64,000 nt of DNA from a virus. Below the pieces are notes generated by a model. That model was not told where the DNA came from, made no database searches, and saw only the letters and a list, made by a program, of their open reading frames with translations. The position numbers and the translations under genes were made by a program. Position 1 is the stretch's first letter; each line of letters begins with the position of its first letter. Positions 16,018 to 64,000 of this stretch are shown piece after piece. The stretch lies in IMG/VR virus record IMGVR_UViG_3300036791_000462, positions 32,001 through 96,000 of that record; one strand, 5' to 3'.

Positions 16018-16749
16018 CTAGCCTGCAGCGGCTCCAGTATCGCCCCCACTTCCTCCGGTCCTTTCATCGTCGGACTGCAAGTCACGCGGAACCCCGAAGT
16101 CGGCAGCCAGTTGCGGGTCGATGGGAGGTGCCCCTTGATCCCACCCCGGCGGCGGTGTCCACGTTTGCTTGCCCGCACCCTTGCGATAGCGCAGCGGTTC
16201 CGGGGAGCCCGCCTCGAACGGCACGTCGATTCGCATCCCGGCGTCACGAATCTGCGTTTCGGTCATCCCCCCGGCCGGTAGCTCACTGGCCTGCGGGGGG
16301 TTCGGCAGGTCGCTGCTTGAGTCCGCTTCGCTCAACTGGTTCAAGTCCTGCAGCCACTGCGGGTCGTCGCCCGCGAAGTCCTCGTCCACCGGTCCTTCGG
16401 GCTCGGCGACGCCCTGCACCGGCTCGGTCAGACGGTGCCTGCCGCCGACCATCCCGGCGATCTCCTCGGCGCTGGACGGCCACAGGTCATCCTGCGCCTG
16501 GGGGTTGGTCATCCACCCGTTGTCGTTCTCAGAGAACGTGTCGCCGTCACCCGGTCCTGTCTGGCGGTACGGTGTCGTCCCGTCACGCAGCCAGTAGGTG
16601 TAGTCGCCGCCTTCGTAGTCCGATCTTGGTGGTCCCGGCAGCGGGCGTTGCGGCAGTGTTTGCGACGGGTCCGTTTCGCGGTTGACCGTCCCGCCTGGAT
16701 CGACTGGTGCGAGCGGGTCGCGGGCCTCGTCCAACTCGTCGGCCATCAC
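16018..16749 (-). CDS. Acidic low-complexity protein coupled to Zeta/RelA gene
   Basis: GTGA overlap; Asp/Glu/Pro-rich; LSEA site. Confidence 0.6.
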   Translation of the reverse strand: MMADELDEARDPLAPVDPGGTVNRETDPSQTLPQRPLPGPPRSDYEGGDYTYWLRDGTTPYRQTGPGDGDTFSENDNGWMTNPQAQDDLWPSSAEEIAGMVGGRHRLTEPVQGVAEPEGPVDEDFAGDDPQWLQDLNQLSEADSSSDLPNPPQASELPAGGMTETQIRDAGMRIDVPFEAGSPEPLRYRKGAGKQTWTPPPGWDQGAPPIDPQLAADFGVPRDLQSDDERTGGSGGDTGAAAG

Positions 16750-27199: not shown

Positions 27200-28073
27200 G
27201 ACCGCCCCCGCCTTCGGCTCTCGCGTGCCATCGGTAGCAGGATCAGCAGCAGGTATGCGACACAGCCCACCTGCAACCCCGAACCGGCCATCAGGCGTCG
27301 CCCCACCATTCCTCGTCCTGGGTTTCGGTGTACCAGCGCGAGCCGTGCTGAGGCATTGGTCGTGCGCTCCGTCCGTGCGGGCCGGGGAGCGCCCCGGCTG
27401 CCCACGCTGTGCCACTGGGCGGGCATGACTGGCTACCCCGCAGGTGGACCGGGTCAGGGGTGGTGCAAGCATCGGCGATGGCGTCGAGGCGACGCAGAGC
27501 GTGCTCGCGAGCGAGGTCGTGCGTGAAGGTCATCCGCCGCTCCGAAGCGGCTGTCGGTGGGCCATCCGTACAGCCTCTTTCCACCGAGCCCATGTCCCCG
27601 ACGGCGGCTCACCTTCGCGCCCTGGGAACTCGACCACCTTCTTGCAAATGGTGCAGACCGCGACACCATCGGGGTATCGCGTGAGGTCGTGAACCGGCTG
27701 GCCTGGTCGGCATACCTTCCGGACTCCTGAGCCGCCGCACGTCGGGCATGTATCGACCGGCGGGTCGTCCAGCCACTCGGGTCTGTGGCTCACGCCCGTG
27801 CCATCGCAGTCGGAGCATTGCATCAGCGTCTCCACCCGATCACGAGCGCGCGCTGGGACAGGTACTCGCCCCACTCGTTGCGACGCCACGGGCGCAGGAT
27901 GATCGCCTTGCTCGCATACCGGTTGCCCTCGCGGTCCAGCGTTGTGGCCTCGTCCACGATCCGGTAGCAGGTGCCCTGAATGCAGGTCGTGACGATCAGC
28001 CGCCCGAAGCGCTGGGCACGGAAGCGGTAGCGTCGCTCGGGTTCACGGCCCGCGCTCCTGCTCGCATAGTCGT

Positions 28074-37048: not shown

Positions 37049-37121
37049 GCCGCTGTCGTCTAGCAGGTCAGGACGCCGCCCTCTCAAGGCGGAAGCACGG
37101 GTTCGAATCCCGTTGGCGGTG
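37049..37121 (+). tRNA. tRNA-Glu (anticodon CTC), CCA not encoded
   Basis: Acceptor GCCGCTG/TGGCGGT, D-arm GTCTAGCAGGTCAGGAC, anticodon arm CCGCC-CTCTCAA-GGCGG, T-arm ACGGG-TTCGAAT-CCCGT. Confidence 0.9.
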
Positions 37122-37124
37122 CTC

Positions 37125-37517
37125 TTACAGCGTTGCGCCTGCTGTCGCGAGGATGTTGCGCAGCGTGCCTGTCGGGATCGAGCCGGTGTGCGTTGGGACG
37201 ATCACGCGCCTGCCGCCGTCGGGGTGTTCGAACACGGCGTGGCTGCCTTTCTGGCCGACTCGTTTGAACCCGGCTTTGCGGAGCATGCGGTGGATCTGCT
37301 TGGCTGTCATCGCTGGCAGCTTCGAGGGTGGGTGCGCTGCGTGGATCACGCCTGAGAGCGTGAACTCGCCGCTGCGGTTACGCGGGTGCAGGATCTCGTC
37401 CCACGCGAAGTGCGACGGGTCGCGACGTTCGAGGATCAGGGTCGCGGCGCGCATCGCTACCGGTCGGCTCAGGCCGCGCGCTTCGTGGATCGCGACCTGG
37501 TCCCAGTAGCCGGGCAT
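37125..37517 (-). CDS. hicA: HicA-family mRNA interferase with N-terminal HPR-tag extension
   Basis: MLRKAGFKRVGQKGSHAVFEHP...VIVPTH...IPTGTLRNIL; N-terminal WDEILHPRNRSGEF. Confidence 0.85.
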   Translation of the reverse strand: MPGYWDQVAIHEARGLSRPVAMRAATLILERRDPSHFAWDEILHPRNRSGEFTLSGVIHAAHPPSKLPAMTAKQIHRMLRKAGFKRVGQKGSHAVFEHPDGGRRVIVPTHTGSIPTGTLRNILATAGATL

Positions 37518-37759: not shown

Positions 37760-37957
37760 TTATGCGGTCTGGAAGTCGATGTGGTCGATGTCGGCCGGGT
37801 CGTACACGGTCAGCGTCGGCGTACCGCTCTCGTCGGTGGTGGTCACGTGAACGTTGCCGTCGCCGACGATCCCGATGTGGGTCACGTCGATGGGGGTGTC
37901 GGGGTCTGCGGCGAGGAACACGCGGCCGGGCGTGTCGGTGGGCCGGTACGCCATCAC
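37760..37957 (-). CDS. Small hypothetical protein
   Basis: GTGA-coupled to amidase. Confidence 0.55.
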   Translation of the reverse strand: MMAYRPTDTPGRVFLAADPDTPIDVTHIGIVGDGNVHVTTTDESGTPTLTVYDPADIDHIDFQTA

Positions 37958-38859
37958 GGTGCTGGGGCGAACGGGATCAGGCTCGCGACCTTACCCTTGT
38001 CGCTCCCGTTCCAGGCTGTCTCGCCCTTCGGCTGCCACGTGTAGACGGTCGAGCCGTCGGTCAGGGTGACGAACACGTGCAGCACGCCCTGGGCGTTGGT
38101 CGAAGCGGAGATGCCTCGGATCTCACTGGGCGCGTCGGCGAGCTTCACGAGCTTCGCGACCTGTTTGCCAGCGGCTCCGCCGTTCCAGGCTGACTCGCCT
38201 TTCTTCTGCCACGTGTACCAGACGGCTTTGCGTTGCGGTCCGACCACGAACGTGTGCAGGCTGCCGTTGTCCGCGACGGCGGATGCGATCATCTCTATCT
38301 CCTCAGGCTTGGGCGGTGTCGGTTCGGGCGAGCTTCCGCTGGCGTGTTGTCGGGCGGCTGCCAGGATCGCCTGGAGCGGGAAACCGGGGCCGCAATCGCT
38401 GTGCCCGCCTCCTGCTGCGCCTAGCTGCTTGTGCTCGCAAACCCCGGCGCTGGCACCCTGTGCTTGGGCGTCGGACAGCGCGACTATCGGAATGCCGAAG
38501 TACGTGGCCTCCTCGGCGATCCAACGAGCTACGTTGTCGAGCATGGCGGGGTGGGCGTTCCATTCCTCCCGGCTCCAGTGCGCAAAAGCACAGATTTCCA
38601 TGTTCATGCTCGGCGGGTTGTAGGCGGCACAGGTCCAGGCCTTGTCGGGCCGTCGCACGTACTCGCCGATCACCCCTGGGGTGGAGTCGATGCCGACGTG
38701 CGAGCTTGCTTGGACGTTGCCCCTGAAGTACGCCCCGAGCGCCTGAAACGTCAAGGCCCCTTCAGCGGTGTGGCAAACCAGGAGCCTTACCCGCGCGCCT
38801 CCGCGCGAGGAGTAGTTAGGGCTCGGGATCAGGGTTCGTTTCAGCGGCGGTGTCGGCAT
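37954..38859 (-). CDS. Endolysin: N-acetylmuramoyl-L-alanine amidase (Amidase_2) with repeated C-terminal binding domain
   Basis: SPNYSSR, LVCHTAE, ASSH, AWT, EIC, HSDCG. Confidence 0.9.
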   Translation of the reverse strand: MPTPPLKRTLIPSPNYSSRGGARVRLLVCHTAEGALTFQALGAYFRGNVQASSHVGIDSTPGVIGEYVRRPDKAWTCAAYNPPSMNMEICAFAHWSREEWNAHPAMLDNVARWIAEEATYFGIPIVALSDAQAQGASAGVCEHKQLGAAGGGHSDCGPGFPLQAILAAARQHASGSSPEPTPPKPEEIEMIASAVADNGSLHTFVVGPQRKAVWYTWQKKGESAWNGGAAGKQVAKLVKLADAPSEIRGISASTNAQGVLHVFVTLTDGSTVYTWQPKGETAWNGSDKGKVASLIPFAPAP

Positions 38860-39298: not shown

Positions 39299-40096
39299 TC
39301 ACTTCTTGCGCTTGTACTTGTCGCGCAGCAGCTTGATCGTTTGCGGTCCGACAACGCCGTCGGCGGTGAGCTTGTTCTTCTTCTGGAAGTTCTGCACCGC
39401 CTTGGTCGTGCGGGCTCCGTAGTCGCCGTCGATGGCCGGTGGGATCTTCTTCGCCTTGTCGCCCTTCGGTAGGTAGCCGCCGCGCAGCAGGTAGGTCTGG
39501 ACCTCTTTCACGTCGTTGCCGGTGTCGCCCTGGCGGAGCGTGCGGTCAGGGAGCTTGCCGGTCTTGCCAGGCACCACGGCGTCGCCGAGCGCGCTGGCTC
39601 GCGCGTAGCGTTGCTGGCGGTCTGTGAGCCCGTTGGTACCGCCGTTGATCCGCCGGGTCGCGGCGTTCACGTCGCGCTGGTCAGCGATGGGGTTCAGCCC
39701 GTGCTGCCACCACCACCAGGCGCTGATCCGGAAGGCGTTGCGCGGCTGTGCGGCTAGTTCCGGGTGGTTGATCAGGTCAAGGCCGAGCGCTTTGCCTGCG
39801 GCGGCGTAGTTCGTGCGGCCGGTCAGTTGGATCGGGCCGCGTCCCTTGTACCGTCGGCCGTCGCCAGGTTGGGTGTTGCCGAGATCGGCGCGGCCTTGGT
39901 ACGCGGCCCCGGAGGCGATCTCCTCCATGTACTTGAGGCTGCCGCTTTCGTGTCCCACCTGGCTTAGCCACATTTGCGCGCGTTCGGGGGTGTTGATCTG
40001 GAACTCGTTCATCGCCTGTTCCATGAACGGGAGGTACGCCTGGGCGGTGTGGCGCGGTAGGCCGGGCATCGCTTTCATCAGCGTTTCGACGTTCAC
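39299..40096 (-). CDS. Endolysin: glycoside hydrolase family 19 + peptidoglycan-binding domain
   Basis: QVGHESG, YKGRGPIQLTGRTNY, TRRINGGTNGL; LRQGDTGNDVKEVQ...DGDYG...DGVVGPQT. Confidence 0.92.
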   Translation of the reverse strand: MNVETLMKAMPGLPRHTAQAYLPFMEQAMNEFQINTPERAQMWLSQVGHESGSLKYMEEIASGAAYQGRADLGNTQPGDGRRYKGRGPIQLTGRTNYAAAGKALGLDLINHPELAAQPRNAFRISAWWWWQHGLNPIADQRDVNAATRRINGGTNGLTDRQQRYARASALGDAVVPGKTGKLPDRTLRQGDTGNDVKEVQTYLLRGGYLPKGDKAKKIPPAIDGDYGARTTKAVQNFQKKNKLTADGVVGPQTIKLLRDKYKRKK

Positions 40097-40843: not shown

Positions 40844-43519
40844 TTAGGCTAATCCCTCGGTTTTGAATGTCCGGTCCAGGTCGCTGACGTTGATGCCCTT
40901 CTCGGCCAGCGGGCCTAGTGATGCTGCGTCTCGCAGCCGTGCCAGATACGCCTGTGCCGGGGAGATCTTCATCACTCCCAGCGCGTTGGACACGTCCCGG
41001 TGGATCCGGTCGATCTGCTCAGCCGGAATGTTTTGGCCCTGCATCCACCTGTCGGCGACTGTCATCGCGTGGTGATGCTCAGCGCTGCGCACTCTTGGCG
41101 CTTCCGCTGTCACCGGTCGCGGGGTCGGCGCTGACGGTTGGTCGATCTGGTCGCCCGCGACCCACAGGCGTCCGCCGTCTTTGAGCACGACCAGCGCGTT
41201 GTTCTCGTTCACGTCGAAGACCGTGCCGTCCAGTTGCCGTCCTGAGCCTGCCAGCGCGAACTTGACCTGGTCGCCCGCCTGCACCTTGCGTCCGCTGGCG
41301 GTGGTGACGGTCGGCATCTCCGTTTTGATGTCGGACAGGTCGGGTGTGACGACGGGGTCAAACGTGCTGTGCGTGATTTGCTTCGCGTCGGGGTGAAGGA
41401 GCGCGCCTCGTAGCGTCTTGACTCCTGGTCGTGACTGTTGCGCGAGCGCGATCAACTCCTGGTGCTGGTCGGCGGTGGCGCGCTGGAACTTCAGTTCGCG
41501 GAGCTTGGAGCGGCGCTGCTCGTCGCTCAGGCCCGCGCTGCGCATGATCGCCCCAACCTGCGCACGGTATTTCGGGTAGGTGCCGCGCACGCGGTAATCC
41601 ATCGGGTGGCGTTTGACGGCTTCGAGCACGTCGGTCATCCCGTAGCTGCGTAGCCAGTCGGCGACCTCCAGGTGTCCTGTCTCCTCGGTCAGCGCCTCCT
41701 CAACGTTGACGCCGAACCCCTTGTAGTCCTGTGCCTGGATGCCGCCGAGCACGCCGACGCCGTGGTTGATCTCGTGCTGGAGGATCTCCAGGTCGTTGTA
41801 GAAGTTCAGCCGCTCGTTGTCGGTCTGCTGCTTACCTTCGGCGCGGGTGGTGAGGAAGTCGCTGGCGTTGTCGAGGTAGCGCTGCTTGATCCCTATCGAC
41901 CCGTTCCAGCGGTGGATGCCAGCGGCGTTGCGGGGGATCCGCTCGGCGTCCACGTGCTTGACGTTCTGCTCGGTTTCGTAGCGCTTGGCGAGTTCGTCCG
42001 CGCGGCCGAGTACGTCGGTCAGCAGTTCGTCCAGGTTCTTCGGCGCTTGGCCGTGTGGCAGCCGGGTGCGGTTCTGCGGGACGATCTCGACCTTCGAGAT
42101 GTTCGGAGCGCGTCTGAGCGCGCCCCCGATGTACTGCGGCTCGACGGTGAGTCTCACGGTCGAGCGGTCGGGCAGGACCAGCTTGCTGGAGAGCGTCGGC
42201 GTGGTGCCGGGCTCCTGGGGTAGCTTCACGGCCCCGAGACGTTCCAGTAGCTGCGTCGCGCTGTACACGTCCATGTTTCCTAGCTCGTGCAGCAGCGCCT
42301 TGTTGTCACGGCCGACCAGCGCCGCTTTGATCGCCTCGTCCTTCTGCACGGCCTCCTCGCGCTTGCGCTTGATCTCGTCCTGAGCCTCCTGCCAGACGCG
42401 CACGTCGTCGGCGCGCTGCTCGGGCGTCACGATCATGTGGTCCCAAACCATCGAGCCGTGGCCCGCGTTGACGACCTCCAGCGGACGTTGGTACTCGGGG
42501 TCTGAGGGGTTGCCGCCTCGGCGCATGTGCAGCACGAGCGAGTCGGGCGGCTGGCCGGGGCCGACCTCCTTGTCGAACCGGGTGACGCCCTCCACGCCTT
42601 CGGGGAGGCTGCCTGCGGATAGCTCGCCACGGTTCTGGGACACCTTCATCCGCCAGCCCGAGTCGATGGTGTGCAGCGCGTTGACGACAGTGTTGGCGTT
42701 GTCGCCCGGTTTGACGTGGGCGAACGGGTTCTCCTGGATCGCGGCGAGCTTCGCGCTCGCGACCTCGCTGTCGGTTGGGCGAAACGCGGTGACCTTGCCG
42801 ACCTGCACGCCGCCGGGGGTGTCGTCCACACGCAGCGCACGGCCCTGCCCGTTGGGGTGAACGAACTCCATCCAGTCGTCGCCGTTTTCGTTGACGACCT
42901 TCGGGCGGCTGTAGCCCGCACCGCGCATCGAGTTGCGAACGGTCTGCGGGTCGCCGTGGGTCAGCAGCGCGGCGACCGGGTCGCTGTTCGGGATCGGGGG
43001 GTGCAGTTCGGCGCTGGCGTCGGCGACGGTGCCGCCTGGTGCTTCGCCGAACCCTGGTCCCTTGAGCGTCAGGTGCAGGTCCGCTCCCTGCGTGTGCGAA
43101 CGGAAGACCTGTTTGCGGTTGTCGCCGCTGACGTAGTGGAAGTCAAGCGGCATCGGGTGCCCGCCGCGAGCGGCGGTTTCGAGCGACATCGAGCCGCTGC
43201 GGATCTCGCTCATCGTCTGGCCGATCAGCCCGGCGGCGAGGTCGTGCGACGGGTGTGTCTCATCGAGGATCGCGGGCGGGCGCTCCAGCGTTTCGATCCA
43301 CTTGCCGCCGCGTCCTCGCGGGTGCTCAAACGCTTTGAAGTCCGCTTCGCTGATCTCGCCGTACAGCGACTGTTCGATCTCGCGGTCGATCTGCTCAAGC
43401 TCGGCGCGGTCCTGTGCGCTCATCTGATCCCAGTTGCGCCGGGCCTGTTCGATCTCCTGCTCGGTGGGTTCCTCAGCCCCGACCTGGCCGTCGGTGATCT
43501 TCAGCGGTTCGGGGTTCAC
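40844..43519 (-). CDS. HPRGRGG-tagged multidomain protein with gluzincin metallopeptidase motif
   Basis: ISEADFKAFEHPRGRGGKW; LQHEINHG...VEEALTE; SH3-like VQAGDQVKF...GTVFDV. Confidence 0.7.
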   Translation of the reverse strand: MNPEPLKITDGQVGAEEPTEQEIEQARRNWDQMSAQDRAELEQIDREIEQSLYGEISEADFKAFEHPRGRGGKWIETLERPPAILDETHPSHDLAAGLIGQTMSEIRSGSMSLETAARGGHPMPLDFHYVSGDNRKQVFRSHTQGADLHLTLKGPGFGEAPGGTVADASAELHPPIPNSDPVAALLTHGDPQTVRNSMRGAGYSRPKVVNENGDDWMEFVHPNGQGRALRVDDTPGGVQVGKVTAFRPTDSEVASAKLAAIQENPFAHVKPGDNANTVVNALHTIDSGWRMKVSQNRGELSAGSLPEGVEGVTRFDKEVGPGQPPDSLVLHMRRGGNPSDPEYQRPLEVVNAGHGSMVWDHMIVTPEQRADDVRVWQEAQDEIKRKREEAVQKDEAIKAALVGRDNKALLHELGNMDVYSATQLLERLGAVKLPQEPGTTPTLSSKLVLPDRSTVRLTVEPQYIGGALRRAPNISKVEIVPQNRTRLPHGQAPKNLDELLTDVLGRADELAKRYETEQNVKHVDAERIPRNAAGIHRWNGSIGIKQRYLDNASDFLTTRAEGKQQTDNERLNFYNDLEILQHEINHGVGVLGGIQAQDYKGFGVNVEEALTEETGHLEVADWLRSYGMTDVLEAVKRHPMDYRVRGTYPKYRAQVGAIMRSAGLSDEQRRSKLRELKFQRATADQHQELIALAQQSRPGVKTLRGALLHPDAKQITHSTFDPVVTPDLSDIKTEMPTVTTASGRKVQAGDQVKFALAGSGRQLDGTVFDVNENNALVVLKDGGRLWVAGDQIDQPSAPTPRPVTAEAPRVRSAEHHHAMTVADRWMQGQNIPAEQIDRIHRDVSNALGVMKISPAQAYLARLRDAASLGPLAEKGINVSDLDRTFKTEGLA

Positions 43520-45042
43520 GTCTTCCTCCGCTTCGCTGCGGCGGCGGCTCTGCGTGCCGTCTCGGCTTCCACGTCGGCGTCCTGGCGGCGCTGCTGTTCA
43601 GTCCAGACGACGGCCTGTAGCTCGTGCGGTTTGAGCCCCACCCTGTCGGCGACGGCGTGCACACGGTTCGCGGTCCACAGGTAGCCGCTGTTCTTGGCGG
43701 TGGGTTTACCTGAGCCGATCACGATCTCGCCCGCCTTGTCGTAGTCGGCACGGGCGGTTTCGCCGAGCAGCGCGCGGGCCATCAGCGTGTCCACGGTGAC
43801 GGTCGTCGGCTGGTCGGGGAACGCGAGGTTGTTGTAGAAGCTGCGGGTCTTCGGGTAGCTCAGCACCGCGTCGGGGTTCTCGCCTCGGTACAGGCGCAGC
43901 GCGGCTTTCAGCGAGTTGCGCATCATCGTCGGGCGCTCCAGCCTGGCAGCGAGCGCGTTCGGGTCTTCGTTGGGATGCGCCCTGGCGATCTTCATCGCGC
44001 GCAGCGCCGCTTCGAGGTTCTCGTACTTGCCCGCTTTCGGGCCGGTCTGCCACTGCCAGCGCATGCGCGGTGAGGTCGCGGCAACCATCGCGGTCAGCAC
44101 CGCCGGGTCCACGTTGTTCTTTGCGGCGACCTGCCCGATCAGGTTGTGCGCGTCGGCGTACCAGCGCGCGTCGTGCTCGCCGTGACCGGTGCTCATCGCC
44201 TGGCGGTACATCTCCTCGAAGCGAGCCTCCGCCTGGGCGTCGGTTAGCTCCACGCGGCTGTGTTCGTGTCCGCGCTGCTCCAGCGGCGTGACGCGGCCGA
44301 GGTCGCCCTGTTCCTGGGCGGTCGGTTCGCGGGTGTGCTTGTCCCACTCCTCGGGGAGTCCCAGCCCGATGCCCTTCTTGCCGGGCGCGGTGTAGACGGT
44401 GACGTGCGGCGGCGGCACGGGGATCTTCTCGCCCGCCTGTTCGGAGAGCTTGTCGTACAGATCGGAGGCACCCTCGACTTTTGCGGGGATCACGAGCGAA
44501 CGTCGATCACCCTTCTCGGCGATACGCCACGGCGGTCCGATGTGCGTGACGCTCACCGGCGCGTTCTGCACCTGGTTGGCCATCTGCTTCAGCGTCGCCT
44601 CGTCGGTGATGGAGGTCGCGCGCTTGACCCGCCGGGAGTCGAACATCGTGACGTGCGGGTTTCGCACCTTCTCCCAGCGCTCACCGCCGACGGTGATCGT
44701 TTGCGGCAGGTCGGGCAGCTTGACCTCCAGCCCCCGGTAGTGCTCGCCCTTGTGCAGCGAGGAGGTGATCCACTTGCCCCCACGTCCGCGCGGGTGCTCC
44801 AGGTCATCCCAGACGCTTTCGGTTAGCTCGCTGTCGCCGTTGCCCGCGAGCGCCTGCACCTGCTGCCAGAACTCCCAGTCGTCGTCGTGGGTCGCGTCGT
44901 CCGGTGGGAGCGACAGGTCGGGCCAGCGGTCGCTGACAGTCGCAGCGGCTTGCGCCCAGTCTGGGCCGCCGCGTTTGACGACCTGCAGATCGCCGGGTTT
45001 CCAGGCGAAGCGGTCGGTGGGGTCGGGTTCCTCGACGGCCAT
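43516..45042 (-). CDS. HPRGRGG-tagged fusion: 2H phosphoesterase + HhH glycosylase-like (DUF7178-like) domain
   Basis: Two HxT motifs (NPHVTMF, PPHVTVY); WYADAH, AATSP, KTRSFYNN, VTVDTLMAR, ELQAVVW; leaderless start MAVEE. Confidence 0.75.
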   Translation of the reverse strand: MAVEEPDPTDRFAWKPGDLQVVKRGGPDWAQAAATVSDRWPDLSLPPDDATHDDDWEFWQQVQALAGNGDSELTESVWDDLEHPRGRGGKWITSSLHKGEHYRGLEVKLPDLPQTITVGGERWEKVRNPHVTMFDSRRVKRATSITDEATLKQMANQVQNAPVSVTHIGPPWRIAEKGDRRSLVIPAKVEGASDLYDKLSEQAGEKIPVPPPHVTVYTAPGKKGIGLGLPEEWDKHTREPTAQEQGDLGRVTPLEQRGHEHSRVELTDAQAEARFEEMYRQAMSTGHGEHDARWYADAHNLIGQVAAKNNVDPAVLTAMVAATSPRMRWQWQTGPKAGKYENLEAALRAMKIARAHPNEDPNALAARLERPTMMRNSLKAALRLYRGENPDAVLSYPKTRSFYNNLAFPDQPTTVTVDTLMARALLGETARADYDKAGEIVIGSGKPTAKNSGYLWTANRVHAVADRVGLKPHELQAVVWTEQQRRQDADVEAETARRAAAAAKRRKT

Positions 45043-45052
45043 TCTACCTATT

Positions 45053-46645
45053 TTAGCGCACATCCTGTGCTTGCGGCGGCAGGGCTTCCAGGATCACGCT
45101 GCGGTTGCCCCACTGGTCCTCGTTGACCTCCGCGACGCGGAACGTCGTGTTGCGGGGCAGCAGCACCTCGGACTCGGGTAGTCCCGAGCCGCCGCCGATG
45201 TGCAGTCCTTCCTCGAACGCGAAGGCGTGGATGCCAGCCGGTAGCCGGATCGAGGTCACCTCGTCGCCGGGTCTGGCGGCTATCGGGCTGCGCAGTGACG
45301 TGGACACGAACGCGGGATCGCGGACCTCGTCGCCGACGTGCAGGTTCGCGAACTGGCCGACCGGGCCGCCTCGGTAGACGGTGACGTTCTCCTTCAGGGT
45401 GGACTTGCCGATGGCGGAGTCGAGCCGGTCGATCATCTGTCCGACGGTCGCGCCGCTCGGGGGTGTCGAGTACCACGCCGACGGCGAGTCGCGGGTGACC
45501 TCGGGGTTGAGGTTGCGCAGGAACTCGTTGACGTGCACGAACCCGGACGCCTGGTAGGACGACAGCGCCCACTGTTCGTCGGTTGTCGTGCCGCTGCTGG
45601 TGAACGCCTTGTTCGCGAACTCGCGGGCGGATTGCATCTGGGTTTTGAACTCGCCCTCGTCGGATGGTTCGCGAGCACCGAACCCCTGCGTCTGCCACGA
45701 CTCGGGCTCGGGCCACTTCGCAGGCTCAGGCTCTGGCGGCTGCTCGCGCAGGTCAAGCTCGCCTTTCCAGTGGGAGCCGATCATCAGTTCCTTGCCCGGC
45801 CAGTTGCGCGTCTTGGGCGGGCCGGTGCCGGTCGAGTAGTCGTGACGTTCGGGTGGGGTTTCCCACCACCAGTGATCGAGCCCCCATCCGGCTAGCTCCG
45901 CTTCGGAGCCGAACTCCCCGGCGGTCAGCTTGCGCTCCAGTTCGGTCATCGTCTGCTCGGTGGCGCGGCTGGCGATCTGTTTCCAGCGGCCGTCCTTCTT
46001 GGCGTCGGCGAGGATCTGTTTCTGCACCGCCTGCTTGTTGCCGGTCCAGACGAACCCGCGTCTCGCCCAGGCGTAACCGCCGACGGACACCGCTTCCACA
46101 TCGGCCTTGTCCACCCCGGCGTCGCGCAGCGTGCCGAGGAAGTGGTTGGTGAACGCCGCCCCGAACCCGTTGCCCTGCTCGGAGCCGCGCAGGTAGATGT
46201 TCGACAGTTCGGCATGCCGTTCGCCACGGAGGTTCGGTGGCTTCAGCGTGACGCGAGCGAGCCCCACCGGTTCGATCTCCCCGACCTTCTGGAGGTTGAG
46301 CCACACCTCCCCGTACAGGTTCTGGGTTTTGGTGCGACCGGAGCGGACAGCGACGATCCCGGCGTGCTGGAACCCGTCCATCGCTTTGGCGAAGTCCTCG
46401 CCGGTGAAGCTCTCCCCGACACGTGGCGCTGCGGGTTTCGCGACACCTGGCTCGGGCGCAGATGTGTGGTGGTGGATGCCGCTGGTGATCCACTCGCCGC
46501 CCCGACCGCGTGGGTGTAGCCACTCGATGAAGTGCGCTTCCTGTAGCTCCTCGCCGTCGTTGTCGGTTGGCACGTCCACGGTCGCGAGCAGGCGTGCGAC
46601 CTCGTCTTCGGGTACGCCGAGGAACAACGCAGTCGGAACGGTCAT
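45053..46645 (-). CDS. HPRGRGG-tagged fusion: GNAT acetyltransferase + R-S-E ADP-ribosyltransferase (VIP2/Alt-like)
   Basis: EQGNGFG acetyl-CoA motif, GGYAWARRGF; Y...VNEFLR, VYRG, FVSTS, ESEVLLPR. Confidence 0.85.
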   Translation of the reverse strand: MTVPTALFLGVPEDEVARLLATVDVPTDNDGEELQEAHFIEWLHPRGRGGEWITSGIHHHTSAPEPGVAKPAAPRVGESFTGEDFAKAMDGFQHAGIVAVRSGRTKTQNLYGEVWLNLQKVGEIEPVGLARVTLKPPNLRGERHAELSNIYLRGSEQGNGFGAAFTNHFLGTLRDAGVDKADVEAVSVGGYAWARRGFVWTGNKQAVQKQILADAKKDGRWKQIASRATEQTMTELERKLTAGEFGSEAELAGWGLDHWWWETPPERHDYSTGTGPPKTRNWPGKELMIGSHWKGELDLREQPPEPEPAKWPEPESWQTQGFGAREPSDEGEFKTQMQSAREFANKAFTSSGTTTDEQWALSSYQASGFVHVNEFLRNLNPEVTRDSPSAWYSTPPSGATVGQMIDRLDSAIGKSTLKENVTVYRGGPVGQFANLHVGDEVRDPAFVSTSLRSPIAARPGDEVTSIRLPAGIHAFAFEEGLHIGGGSGLPESEVLLPRNTTFRVAEVNEDQWGNRSVILEALPPQAQDVR

Positions 46646-49248
46646 TCCGGTTTGACTCCGTTCATCCAGTCACCGATCTGCCGCACCCAGCCGGGCCACT
46701 CCACCGCTTTGTAGTACGGGCCTGTCACGAGCGATGCCGCCTCCGCGAACGTTTCGGTCGCGTAGCCCCCGGCAATGTTCGAGTACGGCCCGGTGGCGCG
46801 TCGCTGCGCCGCTCCCTCGTAGTCGGGGTTGCCCGCCGCGTACTGGCTGAGCCCCTTCGCGACCGCGCTCCAGTCGATCTCACCGTTGTGCTTTGGCAGC
46901 ATGTCGATGAACTGCTGGCGCTGGGTGTCGCTCAGCGCTTCCCACAGCCCGTGGCCCCACTCGTGGCGCAGCACGCCCGCCGGGTCATTGGTGGACGTGA
47001 ACTGGTCGCCAGGTTTCGATGGCTTCGGGCCGTAACGGTCAGGGAACTCGTCGGCGAGCCGCTGGCCGACAGACATCGCGGGAGCGTTGATCGAGGTGAG
47101 GTTCTGAGGCACGTTGCGGCTGGCGGTCACGAACACGTCCCGGACGCCTCCGGGGGCACGGCCATAGCCCTTTTCGGAGATCAGGATCTGGTTGTCCTCG
47201 ACGGCGGGCCAGCGGTCACGCAACGCCGCGAAGCGCGGCAGCGCATCGTTCGCGGCGTTCGCCGCACGCACCGCTCGGTACGCGCGTTTGCCGTCCTCGC
47301 CAGTGTCGGCTGCGACCGCGCCACGGTAGTTCTTGCGCTGCGACGCGAGCGTCGTCGCTCTGAACTTGTCGGTCAGATCCTGCGCTGAGTTGGTGATCGT
47401 CTCGACGGCGTTCGGGTCGCTCAGGAACGCGCCCTTGCCGATCCGCTCGGGGTACTCCAACAGCTTCGAGTTGACGGTCGCGCGCAGTTCGCCGGTGTCC
47501 CACATCGACACGAACACATCGACCGTGCCCATGTCGAGTTGGTCGTTCGCCTTCGCGTTGGCGAGGAAGTCGGGAAGCTGTGCCAGCCCCGTCTCCAGGT
47601 CGCGCTGTGCCCGGTCGGCGTAGCCACTCGCGGCCATCTGCGCCGCTTCGGCGTAGCTGCCAGCGAGCCTGGTCGGCGTGCGCCTGGTCGGCGGTGGCGA
47701 CGGCGGCGGGTTCAGCAGGTGGCTGATCGCCTGCACGGTCTGCTCGGGCGTCTGCTGCGAGGAGTCAACGATGTGAGTCGCGCCGCTTCTCGCCGCGTCG
47801 ATTCGGGGAGCGTCAAGCTGGTCGCGTTCGGTGATTGCCGCGTGCGCCTGCGGGACGGTCAGCCCGCGCGACTCCGCCCGGCGCTGCGCACGGACGTGCG
47901 GGTCGGCGGTCAGGAAGATCCGGTCGTGCGCGTTCAGCGCGCTGCCAGCGTCGCGGCCGTCGGCAACGAACAGTCCGCCTTCGGCGATGCGCTGGTGGAT
48001 CGCCGAGTCCACAGCGCTGCGAACCTCCGTCTCGCCGCCGAGCGCGGACGCGGCACGGTCCACGTTGGTGTTGCGGATCTGCTGGGAGATGTCACGGCCG
48101 TCAAGCGTGACAGTCGAACCGTCAGCGCGGATCCGTCCGGCGCGGAGCGCTCTGACAGGGTCGATTCCCATCGTCTTCGCGAGCCCTGCCGCGCGGTAGT
48201 GAGCGCCGGTATCGACGTACGTCCCGCCGAGCCGTTGCGCGAGCCTGCGAGCGACGGTGCTTTTGCCGGACGCGGCCGGGCCGTCGATGGCGATCACGTG
48301 CGCGGTGCCGAGCTTGTCGATCCATTCGCCGCCGCGCCCACGCGGGTGCTGTAGCTCCGTCCAGACGCTTTCCTGTATGCCCTGTAGCTGGGCGAGTGCT
48401 CGCGCCACGCTGGGGCGCACCTCCAGCCCGCTGAGCCACTGCTCGACCTCCCCTGGGTCTGCGACCACCCTGATCGCTTCCTCCAGCGCCAGAGCCGCCC
48501 TGGCGTCTCTGGCGGCCTGTGCCGGTTCGGGCACCGTGTCACCCGGCCCGAGCGGTTTCAGCCAGCAGCCGCAGCCGGTGTGGATCGGCGGTGGGATCGC
48601 GTCGAGCACGCCCCACGGCCACGCTTTGCCCGCGAGCGCGAGGCAGCCTCGGGTGTGGTTCTTGCGGTCGCCGAGCATCCACTTCGCACCGAGCGGCGAC
48701 CGTGCTTTGACGAGCGCGTTCTCGACGTGCGCGGTGGCTCTCGCCATCATCGCCTGTTGGCGCAGCTTGGAGTAGTGCTGCTCGCGGCTGATGATCGCGT
48801 TGATCCGCGCCTGCTGTTTGCTGTCGGGAAGCTGCCCTGCAGCGTTCAGGTCGTCCTGGACGCGCGCCAACGCTTTCTGCTGAAACAGCCGCTCGTATTG
48901 CATCTCCCTGGCGACAGCTTCGCGGATCACGGCCGGGTCGGCGTTCGGGTAGCGGCTGCGCAGTTGCTTGGTCAGCCAGTCGGCCGAGTCAGCGTGGTGG
49001 CGGCGGAACAGCGCACGCAGGATGCGCAGCGCGACGGCGATCTTCAGGCCGGTGACCGCAATCCCAACCGGCACCTTCGCGGCAGCGACAGCGGCCTGGG
49101 CTGGCAGCGTGACGGTGACCGCCGGTATCGCCGCCACGCCGACGGCGACCTTAGCGGCCTGCCCTGCAGCAGCGGCTTTCAGGATCTGCTGGACCGACGA
49201 CGACTGCGGCGGCTGTTGGGGTTGCTGCCCCTGGTCGGGAACGGCCAC
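46642..49248 (-). CDS. MuF/SPP1-gp7-like head morphogenesis protein fused to cytidylate kinase and zincin peptidase-like domain
   Basis: Near portal; KW...C..LAG...PPIHTGCGC (MuF); IAIDGPAASGKST, VDTGAHYRA, DGRDAG, IFLTAD...RAQRR (Cmk); HEWGH...SQYA...ETFAE. Confidence 0.82.
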   Translation of the reverse strand: MAVPDQGQQPQQPPQSSSVQQILKAAAAGQAAKVAVGVAAIPAVTVTLPAQAAVAAAKVPVGIAVTGLKIAVALRILRALFRRHHADSADWLTKQLRSRYPNADPAVIREAVAREMQYERLFQQKALARVQDDLNAAGQLPDSKQQARINAIISREQHYSKLRQQAMMARATAHVENALVKARSPLGAKWMLGDRKNHTRGCLALAGKAWPWGVLDAIPPPIHTGCGCWLKPLGPGDTVPEPAQAARDARAALALEEAIRVVADPGEVEQWLSGLEVRPSVARALAQLQGIQESVWTELQHPRGRGGEWIDKLGTAHVIAIDGPAASGKSTVARRLAQRLGGTYVDTGAHYRAAGLAKTMGIDPVRALRAGRIRADGSTVTLDGRDISQQIRNTNVDRAASALGGETEVRSAVDSAIHQRIAEGGLFVADGRDAGSALNAHDRIFLTADPHVRAQRRAESRGLTVPQAHAAITERDQLDAPRIDAARSGATHIVDSSQQTPEQTVQAISHLLNPPPSPPPTRRTPTRLAGSYAEAAQMAASGYADRAQRDLETGLAQLPDFLANAKANDQLDMGTVDVFVSMWDTGELRATVNSKLLEYPERIGKGAFLSDPNAVETITNSAQDLTDKFRATTLASQRKNYRGAVAADTGEDGKRAYRAVRAANAANDALPRFAALRDRWPAVEDNQILISEKGYGRAPGGVRDVFVTASRNVPQNLTSINAPAMSVGQRLADEFPDRYGPKPSKPGDQFTSTNDPAGVLRHEWGHGLWEALSDTQRQQFIDMLPKHNGEIDWSAVAKGLSQYAAGNPDYEGAAQRRATGPYSNIAGGYATETFAEAASLVTGPYYKAVEWPGWVRQIGDWMNGVKPE

Positions 49249-49805: not shown

Positions 49806-51899
49806 TCAGTGCTTGCCGTTGCCGTTGGCTGCCGCTTCGGCGAGCATCTGGTCCACGACCTCGCCGATCTCCTCGTCCCAGAAGCGCATGATCTCCTCGA
49901 CACGTTCGGGGCTCAGGCCCTCGTCGGCTGCGGCCTGCTGCATCTGCTGTCCCTGTCCCTGGTTGCCCTGGTACTGAGACGAGAAGCCCTGAGCGCCGTA
50001 CGGGTTCATCTCGCCGTCGGGGCCTTGCCCCGGCACCATCGCCTGCGGCGCGAACGGATTCGGCCCGGACGGAATCAACGGTGGTGCTGGCCCTCCGCCG
50101 CCGCCGGGTTGCGCGTCGGTGGGGGGAGGTCCGGCCATCTGCTGGGCCATCAGCGGATCGACATACCCCTCAGGAAGGATTCGCTCGACGGCGGCGGCCG
50201 GGTCGGCGAGTTCGAGCCCCTGGCCGAGCGCGACAGCGAGCAGCGTCCGGCTTAGCTCAAGGTTGGTGTTGTTCGGATCGAACGTGCGCGCCAGGTTCGC
50301 GATGCTGGTTATCAGGTCGGACATCTGCCGCTTGAGCGGCGAGGGCATCGAGAACTCGTAGCTGAGGTTGCGTTCCGTGTCCTCCTCATCCTCCGTCTGG
50401 CCGTGGTAGGCCTCAGTCAGGCCCTGCGCGCCGTAGACGGCGGTATCCATCGGCTCGGTCATCGAGGACGGCGGCTCTGTCTGTGCGGGTGACGGTGGCG
50501 TCGCGCCCTCCCCGCCGGGCACCTGCTCGCCGGGCTGCTTGGACTTCAGCTTCGCGCGTTCCTCCGGGGTCAGTTGCGTCGGGAGCGTCCCGGCGTCCAC
50601 CGCCTTCTGGATCACCCGGTCTGTGAACGTGCGAAACAGGCCCTCGAACAGTTCCTGGAACGCCTCGACCTTCTTCATCACCGGCAACTCCAGCGACGCA
50701 GCGGTCGCAAGGTTCGCGTTTGACTGGTCGCCGAGATAGTGCTGCGGCCACGTTCCGGCGGAGATCTGGGAGCGGATCATCTGCGCGTCCTGGGACGCTT
50801 GCGCCGCCTGGGTGGAGACGGAGAACGGTTCGGTCGTGACGCCCGCTGATTCGTTCAGCATCGACGCCGGTCGCGGCCCTGGTGTGATCACCCCCGCGTC
50901 CGGCGAGTCAATCGACGTGGCAGCGAGCGTCGAGGTGCGCGACAGTGCCTGCGCGGCGATAGCCGCGACCTGCTGCGGAGAGCCCTTGACAGTTCTCCTC
51001 ATGATGAACGCTGCCGCTGCCTGGGTCATGTCCACCCGTGCGGCCATGAAGTCGTTCAGCGCCGCCATCCACTTGACCATTCGGCGCATCGCGGGGATGC
51101 CGAACACCTGCTCGGTGCCCCGGTTGATCGCGATGTGGTAGACGAGCCCTTCGCCGAGCTTCTCCGGTGGGCACGGCGGATCTTCGGTCAGCAGCAACCC
51201 TGTTTCGGAGTCGGTCGCGGCGAGCGACTGGTAATACTGGACGACGGGCTGACCGCCCTGCTGCAGGCTCGCCGCCGACTTCAGGCTGACGCGGTCCATC
51301 GTGTAGTCCCACTGGTATTCACGTCTGCGGGCGACGTAGTAGAGGACGCGCAGGCGGTTCTGGGAATCGCGGACGGCGTCCTCCACGAGATCGTGGTTGA
51401 GCATCCCGAGCTTGACCTTCCCGTCGTCGCCGTTCTCGAAGAACAGGATGAACAGGTTCGACTGAAGCACCAGGTCGGTGCAGAGCGCCACCTGGGCGGG
51501 GAACGTCGTCAGCGCCGCCATGTTGTCCGGATCCGACCACGCCTCGTCCACGACTTCCTGCACCTTCTCGTCCACGCACTTGGGCTTCGGGACACCGCGA
51601 CCAAAGATGAACTGGCAGGAGATGTCCACGTTCGCCCCGGCGACGGGATCCTGAATCCAGACCATCCGGGCCTGCGCGGCCATCTTCCGGCGCTCGATAG
51701 CCTTGACCTCCTGCGGCTGCCCGCCGATCTGGTCAAGGACGTAGTAGCCGAGCATGTCGAGTTCCTTCTGCATCGCCCGGCGCTCGACATCGCTGGCCTC
51801 AAGCAGTTGCAGGCGGTCCTGGTCAACGACCGTCTTGCCGGTGCGCTGCTCGACGGCCTCCTGGAGCTTGCCGATCAGGCCGCTACTTCCCCGCGCCAT
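49806..51899 (-). CDS. Portal protein
   Basis: 697 aa; DPVAGANVD...FGRGV, PQHYLGDQSNANLATAASLELP; position between terminase and MuF; Pro/Gly/Gln-rich tail. Confidence 0.82.
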   Translation of the reverse strand: MARGSSGLIGKLQEAVEQRTGKTVVDQDRLQLLEASDVERRAMQKELDMLGYYVLDQIGGQPQEVKAIERRKMAAQARMVWIQDPVAGANVDISCQFIFGRGVPKPKCVDEKVQEVVDEAWSDPDNMAALTTFPAQVALCTDLVLQSNLFILFFENGDDGKVKLGMLNHDLVEDAVRDSQNRLRVLYYVARRREYQWDYTMDRVSLKSAASLQQGGQPVVQYYQSLAATDSETGLLLTEDPPCPPEKLGEGLVYHIAINRGTEQVFGIPAMRRMVKWMAALNDFMAARVDMTQAAAAFIMRRTVKGSPQQVAAIAAQALSRTSTLAATSIDSPDAGVITPGPRPASMLNESAGVTTEPFSVSTQAAQASQDAQMIRSQISAGTWPQHYLGDQSNANLATAASLELPVMKKVEAFQELFEGLFRTFTDRVIQKAVDAGTLPTQLTPEERAKLKSKQPGEQVPGGEGATPPSPAQTEPPSSMTEPMDTAVYGAQGLTEAYHGQTEDEEDTERNLSYEFSMPSPLKRQMSDLITSIANLARTFDPNNTNLELSRTLLAVALGQGLELADPAAAVERILPEGYVDPLMAQQMAGPPPTDAQPGGGGGPAPPLIPSGPNPFAPQAMVPGQGPDGEMNPYGAQGFSSQYQGNQGQGQQMQQAAADEGLSPERVEEIMRFWDEEIGEVVDQMLAEAAANGNGKH

Positions 51900-61747: not shown

Positions 61748-62415
61748 CGCACCCTGCGAGAGTGCCCTTTGATGAAGTGCGTCGGCTGTCCCTTCACGTG
61801 TCCCTTCGCGCTGTTCGTCATCTTCGCGATGGACGTTCTCTGACCGCAGCCGCACTCGCACAATCCGGGACCGAAGACCGGTTCTGGACGCTCAACTCGA
61901 TCCCAGGTGTCCCCTCGTACCGCCATCTGCACGGTCGAGATCGAGACGCCGTATTCGTCGGCGAGAGCACGGCTGCGTTCGCCTGTGTGGTAGCGCTCGC
62001 GAATCGCTCGCACGCTCTCCAGGGTTAGCCTGCTCGCCTGCCGCTCGCGGTCGTACATATCGGCGGCGTTGTCGCGCTGGCTTCCGCCAAGCAGATGCGA
62101 CGGGTTACAGCAAGGCGGGTTGTCGCAGGTGTGTCTGACTGATCGCGGCAGCGTGCCGTGGGTCAACTCGAAGATCAACCGTGTGGCTTGCCGAACTTTT
62201 TGGCCTCCCTCCACCACGACCACAAGCTGCCCGTAGCCATGGCTCTGCCTTCCCACCCAGAGCCAGCACTCGTCCGGTCCGCGAACGTCAACCTTCGCCC
62301 ACAGCCGCTCGATCAGTCGCGAGGTCCACGGCGTCTCAGTACCCGTCGTCGTCGCTGTCGTCGTCGCTGCCGTGGAATCCATTGCTGTCGTCGTAGACGT
62401 ACGAGCCGTCGTCAC
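61744..62415 (-). CDS. HNH endonuclease (HNH_3 type) with HTH and CECGCG tail; start uncertain
   Basis: CWLWVG...GYG...VRHTCDNPPCCNPSHL...DN..D; ALADEYGVSISTV. Confidence 0.85.
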   Translation of the reverse strand: MTTARTSTTTAMDSTAATTTATTTGTETPWTSRLIERLWAKVDVRGPDECWLWVGRQSHGYGQLVVVVEGGQKVRQATRLIFELTHGTLPRSVRHTCDNPPCCNPSHLLGGSQRDNAADMYDRERQASRLTLESVRAIRERYHTGERSRALADEYGVSISTVQMAVRGDTWDRVERPEPVFGPGLCECGCGQRTSIAKMTNSAKGHVKGQPTHFIKGHSRRVR

Positions 62416-64000
62416 GGCCTGGGGAATACTCCATCGAGTCTTCGCGCAGCGTCGAGCGCTGGAACCCCAGTTGTTCCATCTCGTCTATGGACGTGATCTC
62501 CTCGCGACCCACCTGTTGCCGTATCCAAAGACATTCCGACGCAACAACAGAGTAGCAAAAGGCTTGCATGTAGTCGTCGGGACCGTCGGCGCGGTAGAGC
62601 ACCTTGACCTTGCCGAGATCGTCCTGCTCGACAGAGCGGACGTTCGAGCACATCTGCGCGACGAATGCTTCAGGGAGGTCTTGGGGGAGGTGTTCGCGTT
62701 GGGCGCGGATGCGTTCCTGGGCAGCGTCTATCGCCTCGGTGCGCCGCACGCTCGCGCGGCGTTGGAGGTCGTTCACGGTCAGCACGTCCTTCTGCTCGCC
62801 GGTGGCGTAGTTGACGATGAACACGCGACCGGCGAAGCGGTTCGCAAACGCTGCCGCGAGACGCCCTTCGGGGAGGTGGTCGATGCCTGCCATGTTCACC
62901 CGGAAGCGGTCCATCAGCTTCGCGAGATCCTCGAAGCTGTCCACCAGCCCGACGTGCAGCGCGCGGCTCTGGGTGTCGCTCGTGTGCTCGCTGACCCACA
63001 CGTTCAGCGAGCGGGTGCTCGCGACATCGACGCCCATCGTGACGGGGTTGGCCCCGGTGTACGCCTGCTGCTGGGTGTAGTCGCGCTGGGCGGCAGCGAT
63101 CATCGCAGCGGTCAGCCTCGCTCCCTCGGCCTCCCACGGCTCCCCGAGATCGCGGTTGTAGAAGACCTGGCGGCGGTAGACCACCTGTTCGCGGGACGCG
63201 GCGATCAGCTTCGGAACGATCTCCTCGCTGGGGAGGATCAGCTTTGTCACGTGGTAGCCGCGCACGTCACGGCCGGGGTAGGTCGCGACCCACTCGCCGA
63301 CGGCGACGTTCAGTGGACCGCGACGACACTGAGAACACACCCTGCCGCCGCGATCCAGGTCTATGTTCTCAGGCCACCGCACCGCCTGCCACAGGCCGCA
63401 GAACTCGCAGCGGACAGTCCACTCGCGCTGGTCACTCTTGTCCCACTCCTTGTGGATCCCGTGCTGAGAGATCGTCGGGAAGCCGATCCGGCGGATCAAC
63501 CCGAGCGAGTCCTGCCCGCCGACACGGCGCTCGGCGATAGGGATGTGCGCCTGGACCAACAGGTCGTGCTCATCGAGGCACAGCGCGTCGGCGTCGATGC
63601 TCTCAAGCCCGGCCTCGGCCTCGCTGCCTCGGAAGTAGCAGATCCCGAGCCCCACGGACTTCAGCGTCTTGTTCATCACGCTGGCGGGCGGGACGCGGGT
63701 GCGGAGGTACTCGCCGAGAATCAGCGGTTTGATGCGCCCGTCGGAGAAGTCGAGTAGCTGACGTTCGCGTGGGAACAGGTAGAGCACGCGCGCACCGTGC
63801 ATGTCGGCCCAGCACAACGCCCAGCGCACGAGCCACGCGGAGATCCCAAGCTGGGTCGCTTTCATCACCACAACCTCTTTGTCATCGAACCCCTGCTCGT
63901 AGAGTTCGCGCTGGAACGGCCAGCGGCGGAAGTCGAGCGGGCCTTTGGATTCGGGCACCTTGATCGCCCAGTCCAGGAAGCTCGCGCGGCGCTGCTCGGC
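62336..64000 (-). CDS. terL: Terminase large subunit, lambda GpA-like (5' end beyond window)
   Basis: PFQRE adenine-binding motif, MKATQLGIS Walker A, LCLDEHD Walker B, CEFC/CSQC, MGVDV nuclease motif; frame open to 64000. Confidence 0.9.
   Translation of the reverse strand, partial: AEQRRASFLDWAIKVPESKGPLDFRRWPFQRELYEQGFDDKEVVVMKATQLGISAWLVRWALCWADMHGARVLYLFPRERQLLDFSDGRIKPLILGEYLRTRVPPASVMNKTLKSVGLGICYFRGSEAEAGLESIDADALCLDEHDLLVQAHIPIAERRVGGQDSLGLIRRIGFPTISQHGIHKEWDKSDQREWTVRCEFCGLWQAVRWPENIDLDRGGRVCSQCRRGPLNVAVGEWVATYPGRDVRGYHVTKLILPSEEIVPKLIAASREQVVYRRQVFYNRDLGEPWEAEGARLTAAMIAAAQRDYTQQQAYTGANPVTMGVDVASTRSLNVWVSEHTSDTQSRALHVGLVDSFEDLAKLMDRFRVNMAGIDHLPEGRLAAAFANRFAGRVFIVNYATGEQKDVLTVNDLQRRASVRRTEAIDAAQERIRAQREHLPQDLPEAFVAQMCSNVRSVEQDDLGKVKVLYRADGPDDYMQAFCYSVVASECLWIRQQVGREEITSIDEMEQLGFQRSTLREDSMEYSPGRDDGSYVYDDSNGFHGSDDDSDDDGY

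Follow-up and report, generated by a model that had tools for sequence, protein, structure and literature searches.

The stretch of viral DNA analysed here (the window, 64,000 nucleotides; bases 32001–96000 of the 107,110-bp linear IMG/VR record IMGVR_UViG_3300036791_000462, approximately 66% G+C, CheckV completeness 86%) contains a gene for an 868-residue protein in which an N-terminal MuF-like head-morphogenesis domain is joined to an intact-looking cytidylate kinase (Cmk) domain and a C-terminal zincin-like metallopeptidase domain. The gene, its position, its three domains, the conservation of its catalytic residues, the shuffling of its modules among related proteins and the recurrence of the kinase together with a conserved peptide, referred to here as the header, are all observed. 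From these it may be inferred that this is a polyvalent virion protein, made of a MuF anchor, a competent (deoxy)cytidine monophosphate ((d)CMP) kinase as cargo and a zincin that either processes the chain or acts as an effector. The chances of this reading being correct are roughly even; it would have the protein packaged, injected and cleaved, its kinase active on (d)CMP, and the phage benefiting from it.

The gene is a single minus-strand open reading frame (ORF) of 868 codons plus a stop codon, at 46642–49248 of the window, exactly where the first-pass annotation of this DNA had placed it. The GTG start codon is backed by homologues which align from residue 1 or 2 and begin M-A-V-P-D at the same place. 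The motifs listed in that annotation are likewise all present, these being IHTGCGCW (residues 222–229) in the N-terminal domain, HPRGRGGEW (residues 301–309) in the header, the P-loop GPAASGKST (residues 323–331), DTGAHYRA, DGRD, FLTA, RAQRR and RDQLDAPR in the kinase, and HEWGH (residues 762–766) and ETFAE in the zincin. As a set they go far beyond chance: Pfam family PF02224 (Cytidylate_kin) matches the kinase at 120.2 bits (E 1.3e-34, cut-off 26), covering profile positions 1–207 of 211, 359 cluster representatives are homologous to the N-terminal module, and HExxH...E is invariant in 11 homologues of the zincin.

The best PDB sequence matches to the kinase module are all cytidylate kinases, including that of T. 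thermophilus (3AKC, E 9e-23), several other bacterial Cmk chains and that of E. coli. Compared with E. coli Cmk, the module retains G12, K18, Y40, R41, S101, R110, R131, D132, R157, R181, D185 and R188, and Ser36 to Thr is the only change among the catalytic and CMP-binding residues checked. The roles of these residues in the P-loop, in CMP binding and in the LID are taken here to be those assigned in the Cmk structural literature. The nucleoside monophosphate (NMP)-binding insert is reduced in length relative to the E. coli enzyme, as is the LID. Substitution of one of the retained residues, R41E, serves as a catalytic-dead Cmk control (PMC8565310).

Four phage Cmk modules, that of the 868-residue protein and those of the related proteins P0002, P0009 and P0010, are 62–76% identical to each other when aligned, and all four keep G12, K18, R41, R110, R131, D132, R157, R181, D185 and R188. 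Ser36 is Thr in every one, and two also carry Y40F and S101A. The Cmk module of the IMG/VR contig L009, compared by pairwise alignment only, is 59% identical. That the catalytic set is retained across the four modules argues for selection on activity, and the domain, as judged from its sequence, is an intact-looking but divergent Cmk and a predicted kinase. The genome has no other Cmk, and the Cmk matches retrieved from a phage collection by tblastn are bacterial-like, lack the header and are only 33–39% identical. A role for the kinase in a modified-dCMP pathway was considered and dropped, neither thymidylate synthase/dCMP hydroxymethylase (PF00303) nor ThyX (PF02511) being found in the 86%-complete genome.

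The same N-terminal domain is joined in relatives to NUDIX, Zeta kinase, CCA-adding enzyme plus HD, or GNAT domains. The architecture of P0002 is MuF-header-Cmk-...-GNAT, and in L009 the homologous polyprotein gene, which lies directly 3' of the portal gene, encodes MuF-header-X-header-Cmk-header-.... In P0009 and P0010 the order is leader-header-Cmk-DUF3626-header-GNAT; this recurrent trio of Cmk, DUF3626 (residues 387–453 of P0009 and 423–497 of P0010) and header-tagged GNAT is a feature in its own right. Other relatives have MuF-CCA-adding enzyme/HD-header-...-zincin (P0003), MuF-NUDIX (P0005), MuF-NUDIX-...-Zeta (P0007) and MuF-zincin (P0177), the zincin at the end of P0003 and P0177 being the same as that of the 868-residue protein. 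The header and Cmk cassette is found in four metagenomic lineages besides this one, and these architectures show the kinase to be an exchangeable cargo cassette, kept in at least five lineages. The 868-residue protein has the characteristics by which polyvalent proteins are recognised, namely at least two distinct domains, a virion context and variable architectures among its relatives. A class placement can be added to the first-pass annotation: by sequence, the protein belongs to a family of polyvalent proteins with header-tagged cargo, in which NUDIX, Zeta or CCA-adding modules can stand in the slot of the kinase.

The header is a conserved stretch of approximately 22 residues, found between the MuF-like domain and the kinase and directly preceding the latter, where it reads I291-Q-E-S-V-W-T-E-L-Q-H301-P-R-G-R-G-G-E-W309. 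Seven copies of the tag HPRGRGG.W and one of the variant HPRNRSGEF give eight copies, spread over seven genuine ORFs of the window; the variant belongs to a small ORF at ~37388, and a 612-residue ORF holds two copies. The cargo of the tagged ORFs includes a Zeta toxin kinase (PF06414), an ADP-ribosyltransferase (ART), DUF7178, and PG_binding_1 with a ParB-like stretch. Among the MuF homologues there are 98 copies of the header in 50 proteins, with the consensus L-[QE]-E-A-x-[YFW]-x-E-x-L-H-P-R-[GD]-R-x-G-x-[WF]-[IV]. It is present in 47 of the 112 long homologues (600 residues or more) and in none of the 29 short ones, and is located at the borders of modules, as in L009. The start of the header, L-x-E↓A/S, resembles a Glu-specific head-protease site, and the header may be a cut site, a loading signal or both. 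A co-fold prediction of the zincin module with the header peptide (residues 272–320) scored 0.01, which neither supports nor opposes cleavage there by this enzyme. No report of the tag strings or of the LxE...HPRGRGGxW header was found in the literature.

The N-terminal domain carries the motif SP.GA.W...HT..C...G..WPW...PP.H.GC.C. An exhaustive phmmer search recovered its 359 representatives, 295 of them at E<=1e-10, and the module is N-terminal in nearly all of these, in proteins of 218 to 5,944 residues. Alignment A1, of 30 short and near-stand-alone homologues, gives the common motif SP.GA.W.LG...HT.DC.AMAGK.WPW.VLD..HPP.H.GC.C.L, a sequence pattern which is that of the knuckle at the C-terminal end of MuF; P0177 has its canonical form, PP.HPNCRC. 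Family PF04233 (Phage_Mu_F) is weakly matched by 7 of the 30 and is the only recurrent family among them. The A1 profile aligns with P0177 in hhalign (probability 99.7%, E 9e-26, 201 columns), and residues 139–215 of P0177 match PF04233 (E 8e-6, 27 bits, just below the cut-off of 29.6). An AlphaFold2 model of the domain has a predicted local distance difference test score (pLDDT) of 79.5 overall, and above 90 for residues ~70–250; its top 50 Foldseek matches in BFVD are mostly annotated as 'Phage head morphogenesis domain', minor capsid or head morphogenesis proteins (E from 1.6e-3, probability 1.0), and the BFVD matches also include MuF proteins fused to ART or to Zeta toxin. Alone, the N-terminal part is unrecognised by Pfam and PHROGs, and PF04233 run against all six reading frames of the genome gives only a spurious 13-bit match elsewhere (window ~43674–43769, plus strand). 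A PDB sequence-profile search with A1 found nothing, hhalign of the N-domain profile against SPP1 gp7 alone gives E 0.15 with alignment at the C.C motif only, and the comparison with P0008 is not significant.

On the strength of the transitive profile matches, the BFVD fold matches and the position of the gene by that of the portal, the domain is accepted, from sequence and model, as a divergent MuF that falls outside strict Pfam membership. The architecture proposed in the first-pass annotation, MuF with an intact-looking Cmk and a zincin, is therefore upheld for the kinase and the zincin, and for MuF only by transitive homology and fold. A domain search for Phage_Mu_F together with Cytidylate_kin matches the second family and not, directly, the first; the N-terminal assignment comes from the BFVD fold search and the link through P0177, not from the Pfam profile.

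In the C-terminal module, the HEWGH motif is followed by a third ligand, E832, within ETFAE, and H762, E763, H766 and E832 are invariant in sets of 8 and of 11 homologues. No Pfam family matches residues 517–868 at E<=10, and none matches the homologues of the zincin; PHROGs likewise gives no peptidase for the C-terminal part alone. The structural model of the module (pLDDT 86, predicted template modelling score 0.83) has only zincins as its top matches in an exhaustive VIA structural comparison; it is closest to the lethal-factor catalytic domain (Z 10.2, root mean square deviation 3.6, 173 residues), followed by LF-N-like domains (Z 8.7–8.9), the Pro-Pro endopeptidases PPEP-3 (Z 8.5) and PPEP-2 (Z 7.4), and then M13, M35, Wss1 and YbeY. 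The best Foldseek match is the same enzyme as the top VIA match, weakly (E 0.11), and an ESM Atlas feature match to 'Pro-Pro endopeptidase family' (0.95) is a lead only. By its modelled structure, the module is a zincin fold nearest the M34 peptidases and a predicted peptidase, which fits the metallopeptidase (MPTase) of polyvalent proteins. Its homologues are few (P0003, P0004, P0008 and P0174–P0177, plus weaker matches) and nearly always C-terminal; a scan of viral contigs for more gave weak partial matches only.

Along the minus strand, the gene order is large terminase, portal, a 166-residue ORF, the 868-residue gene, GNAT/ART, a DUF7178 protein, an 891-residue protein and two endolysins, which places the gene in a late structural operon, two genes downstream of the portal and 28 bp from the small ORF that lies between (Table 1). 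A megablast comparison with the phage collection gave no match to the gene at the nucleotide level. The best cultured-phage relatives of the large terminase, from SPO1-like/Herelleviridae phages of Firmicutes, are only ~26% identical, despite the 66% G+C of this genome, and on terminase identity the phage looks like a deep-branching uncultured lineage. The two endolysin genes (39299–40096 and 37954–38859, minus strand) are different from each other and come directly after the cargo array within the structural/late region. The 891-residue protein is header-tagged (40844–43519, minus strand) and has no Pfam or PHROG family. A single tRNA-Glu gene (CTC anticodon; 37049–37122, plus strand) adjoins the small ORF with the variant tag. 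Between the tagged 612-residue gene and a 609-residue phrog_2319 protein there is a collagen-repeat protein (6366–6905, minus strand) with tail-fibre PHROG matches, and a glycosyltransferase-like protein of 430 residues (phrog_13126) is encoded at 26180–27472 on the minus strand.

Table 1. Features of the 868-residue gene and of its surroundings, in window coordinates.
Feature	Position	Strand	Remarks
Whole gene, 868 residues plus stop	46642..49248	(-)	GTG start; overlaps the downstream ART gene by ATGA
Pro/Gln/Ala-rich low-complexity N-terminus, residues 1-59	49072..49248	(-)	low model confidence
MuF-like head-morphogenesis domain, residues 60-255	48484..49071	(-)	three long helices and a small Cys/His knuckle
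Module header IQE-SVWTEL-QHPRGRGGEWIDK, residues 291-312	48313..48378	(-)	candidate cut site I-Q-E↓S and HPRGRGGxW tag
Cytidylate kinase domain (predicted), residues 315-512	47713..48306	(-)	PF02224
Pro-rich linker (NPPPSPPPTRRTPTR...), residues 513-530	47659..47712	(-)	no header tag
Zincin-like metallopeptidase module (predicted), M34-like fold, residues 531-868	46645..47658	(-)	HEWGH 46951-46965; E832 at 46753-46755
Portal gene, upstream	49806..51899	(-)	phrog_10963 portal, E 8e-23; context fits a MuF-type protein
GNAT/ADP-ribosyltransferase gene, 530 residues, downstream, translationally coupled, header-tagged	45053..46645	(-)	PF03496, E 6.5e-17; tag at residue ~51; same cargo array
Large terminase	62336-63958	(-)	phrog_675, E 5e-78
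Six further tagged ORFs	7547-9385, 16746-19604, ~37360-37410, 40844-43519, 43516-45063, 45053-46645	(-)	

Free phage NMP kinases are well known, and T4 gp1 (a dNMP kinase) and T7 gp1.7 are early proteins of other families which are not linked to the virion. Like the module described here, they are phage-supplied nucleotide kinases that release a phage from limits set by the kinases of the host. They differ in not being Cmk homologues, and T7 still needs host cmk (PMC10824729). Bacterial Cmk (E. coli b0910; PDB 1KDO, 3AKC) shares its fold family, P-loop, and NMP-binding and LID residues with the phage module, which differs in its 32% identity to the E. coli enzyme, its shorter NMP insert and LID, the Ser36Thr change and its embedding in a predicted virion polyprotein. 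The M34 zincins, represented by the lethal-factor catalytic domain and the Pro-Pro endopeptidases, have the fold and the HExxH plus downstream Glu in common with the C-terminal module; the resemblance is one of fold only, with identity of about 10%, no Pfam or sequence-level match, and a spacing of 66 residues here between HExxH and Glu. An analogy for delivery is with T4 Alt and the internal proteins (PMC5512222), enzymes which are loaded into the head and injected along with the DNA, as is proposed here. Their short signal is cut after Glu by a head protease, as the header might be. The header is internal, is ~22 residues long and can recur in one chain, and no Pfam S77 protease is detected in this phage.

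MuF fusions have been described as probable injected effectors (Iyer, Burroughs, Anand, de Souza and Aravind 2017, PMC5512222), and the same work finds zincin MPTases, linked to lethal factor by HHpred, to be the commonest domain of polyvalent proteins, proposed to be autoprocessing enzymes or effectors. The 868-residue protein resembles those proteins in that a single chain combines MuF, as the virion domain, with an enzymatic effector and an MPTase of zincin type, in its virion gene context, and in cargo that varies from one relative to another. Domains of nucleotide metabolism are familiar in the class as well, those described for MuF fusions and polyvalent proteins being RelA/SpoT, GGDEF, InPase, PRTase and Zeta-like kinases. 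It differs in that neither cytidylate kinase nor any other NMP kinase occurs in that paper (0 occurrences), and in the LxE...HPRGRGGxW header before each module, which is in no paper found. The MuF extensions reported by Jamet et al. (2017, PMC5576092) are nucleases, metallopeptidases, ARTs and RelA-like domains, with a metallopeptidase domain in about 20% of the putative MuF toxins. The MuF polymorphic toxins of temperate phages in that study also have an N-terminal MuF adjoining the portal gene and a variable C-terminal extension. In the present case, by contrast, the MuF domain has diverged beyond what Pfam recognises, and a kinase of housekeeping type takes the place of a toxin as cargo. 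An immunity gene would not be expected and none is seen, and the phage is a large, uncultured one of 107 kb. That an NMP kinase would be atypical as a MuF extension, as the first reading had it, agrees with the literature searched, where it is missing from the list in PMC5576092 and where PMC5512222 has no cytidylate kinase. Nothing relevant was found in the literature linking cytidylate kinase to MuF, or to virion or injected proteins. MuF fusions and polyvalent proteins are already established, and Cmk is, in the literature searched, a previously unreported cargo.

The mechanism proposed is that the MuF-like domain would attach the protein to the portal or to the head interior, and that the attached protein would be packaged and would leave the capsid with the DNA. 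The header before the kinase would be a probable cut and/or loading signal, and the M34-like zincin would either cut the polyprotein into modules or itself be a protease effector. The kinase would give the infected cell an immediate ATP:(d)CMP phosphotransferase activity, making phage DNA and RNA synthesis independent of host Cmk, which is a known phage dependency. The first-pass annotation had proposed that an injected (d)CMP kinase could replenish pyrimidine pools in dormant hosts or counter defences that deplete nucleotides, which would be a putative role for it. Host cmk is essential for the replication of T7 and dispensable for the growth of E. coli (PMC10824729), and loss of cmk makes Yersinia pestis resistant to phage Yep-phi, with an efficiency of plating of about 5e-5 and adsorption unchanged (PMC10254400). 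Cmk also affects mRNA 5'-end decay (PMC8565310).

Several results weigh against this reading. The score of the kinase against TIGR00017, the NCBI equivalog for (d)CMP kinase, is 103 bits, below the cut-off of 135.55, and its identity to cellular Cmks is ~32–39% (32% to E. coli Cmk), which would mean that its substrate could differ. MuF-type proteins, as known from the literature on SPP1 gp7, are present in few copies per virion, and so few kinase molecules may add little where the host has Cmk. No head protease of Pfam S77 (T4 gp21), S78 or ClpP that might cut at the header was detected in the 86%-complete genome. The kinase and the zincin have no header separating them and may therefore stay joined. 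Residues 1–315 have no match to PF04233 even at E<=10. Searches of PDB folds with the N-domain model (Foldseek and VIA) return generic helical bundles only, although no solved MuF-like chain was found in the PDB for comparison and the absence of a match there says nothing against MuF.

It is unlikely, though worth weighing, that the kinase acts in the producing cell as an auxiliary metabolic enzyme, accumulating late to serve a 107-kb genome of 66% G+C that needs much dCTP, with the fusion to MuF as a convenient context for expression. Its catalytic residues are intact and the gene is in the late structural operon, and the small number of MuF-type copies per virion would favour action before packaging. 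Host Cmk, moreover, is limiting for some phages (PMC10824729, PMC10254400). What speaks for delivery instead is that the Cmk cassette is always accompanied by the header tag and, across five lineages, is always part of a MuF polyprotein or another tagged one, and that in the searches made it never appeared as a free phage gene, the Cmk matches in the phage collection being untagged and bacterial-like. The neighbouring tagged modules are also toxin-like (ART, Zeta) and would be unwanted in active form in a producing cell. A shift in substrate is just as improbable: the Cmk fold might then belong to a nucleotide-directed effector or counter-defence enzyme, like Zeta/AvrRxo1-type kinases, acting on another cytidine-containing or signalling nucleotide. 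The low equivalog score, the Thr at position 36 in four modules, the Ala at 101 and Phe at 40 in two, and the short NMP-binding insert and LID would all be in keeping with this, and the same slot in relatives holds NUDIX, Zeta and CCA-adding enzymes, which act on nucleotides or tRNA ends. Yet the residues which in E. coli Cmk presumably contact CMP and carry out catalysis are retained, and the best matches are all bona fide Cmks.

The relationship between the kinase and the zincin allows a further explanation, in which the kinase is a nucleotide sensor that gates the zincin, binding of ATP/CMP in the host cytoplasm switching on proteolysis, as inositol hexakisphosphate (InsP6) does with the cysteine protease domains of large toxins. 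The two are joined by a plain Pro-rich linker with no header and may remain one polypeptide. The kinase is, however, found without this zincin in P0002, P0009, P0010 and L009, the zincin without the kinase in P0003, P0004, P0008 and P0174–P0177, and the full catalytic set is conserved, beyond the residues for binding, all of which makes gating very improbable. That the zincin is one more delivered effector, cutting a host protein, rather than a processing enzyme, is a good deal more credible, if a little short of an even chance; it concerns the last module only and is compatible with the reading of the whole as a polyvalent virion protein. The header tag is upstream of the zincin in P0004, P0175 and P0176, as it is with other cargo, the nearest folds are effector or secreted M34 proteases, and such a role is allowed by Iyer et al. 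(2017, PMC5512222). The zincin nonetheless closes the chain in nearly every case, and autoprocessing is argued to be its commonest role in the same paper.

If the 868-residue protein does deliver a (d)CMP kinase from the virion, the header and Cmk cassette might more specifically be a ready-made counter-measure with which the clade infects hosts whose cmk is lost or shut down, or whose defences drain cytidine nucleotides or divert them (e.g. dCTP/dCMP deaminases), and an immune signal based on cytidine might be another of its targets; this is speculative and unlikely, and if true would mean that what phages inject extends from toxins to enzymes of metabolic repair. As a compact example with three modules, the protein could be used to follow the loading, header cleavage and release of MuF-anchored polyproteins. 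The fact that a clade repeatedly keeps an intact Cmk in head-associated polyproteins suggests that virion cargo, beyond toxins or anti-restriction factors, can include metabolic "starter" enzymes by which a dependency on the host is lifted, the loss of cmk being a documented route to phage resistance in both E. coli (T7) and Yersinia pestis (Yep-phi).

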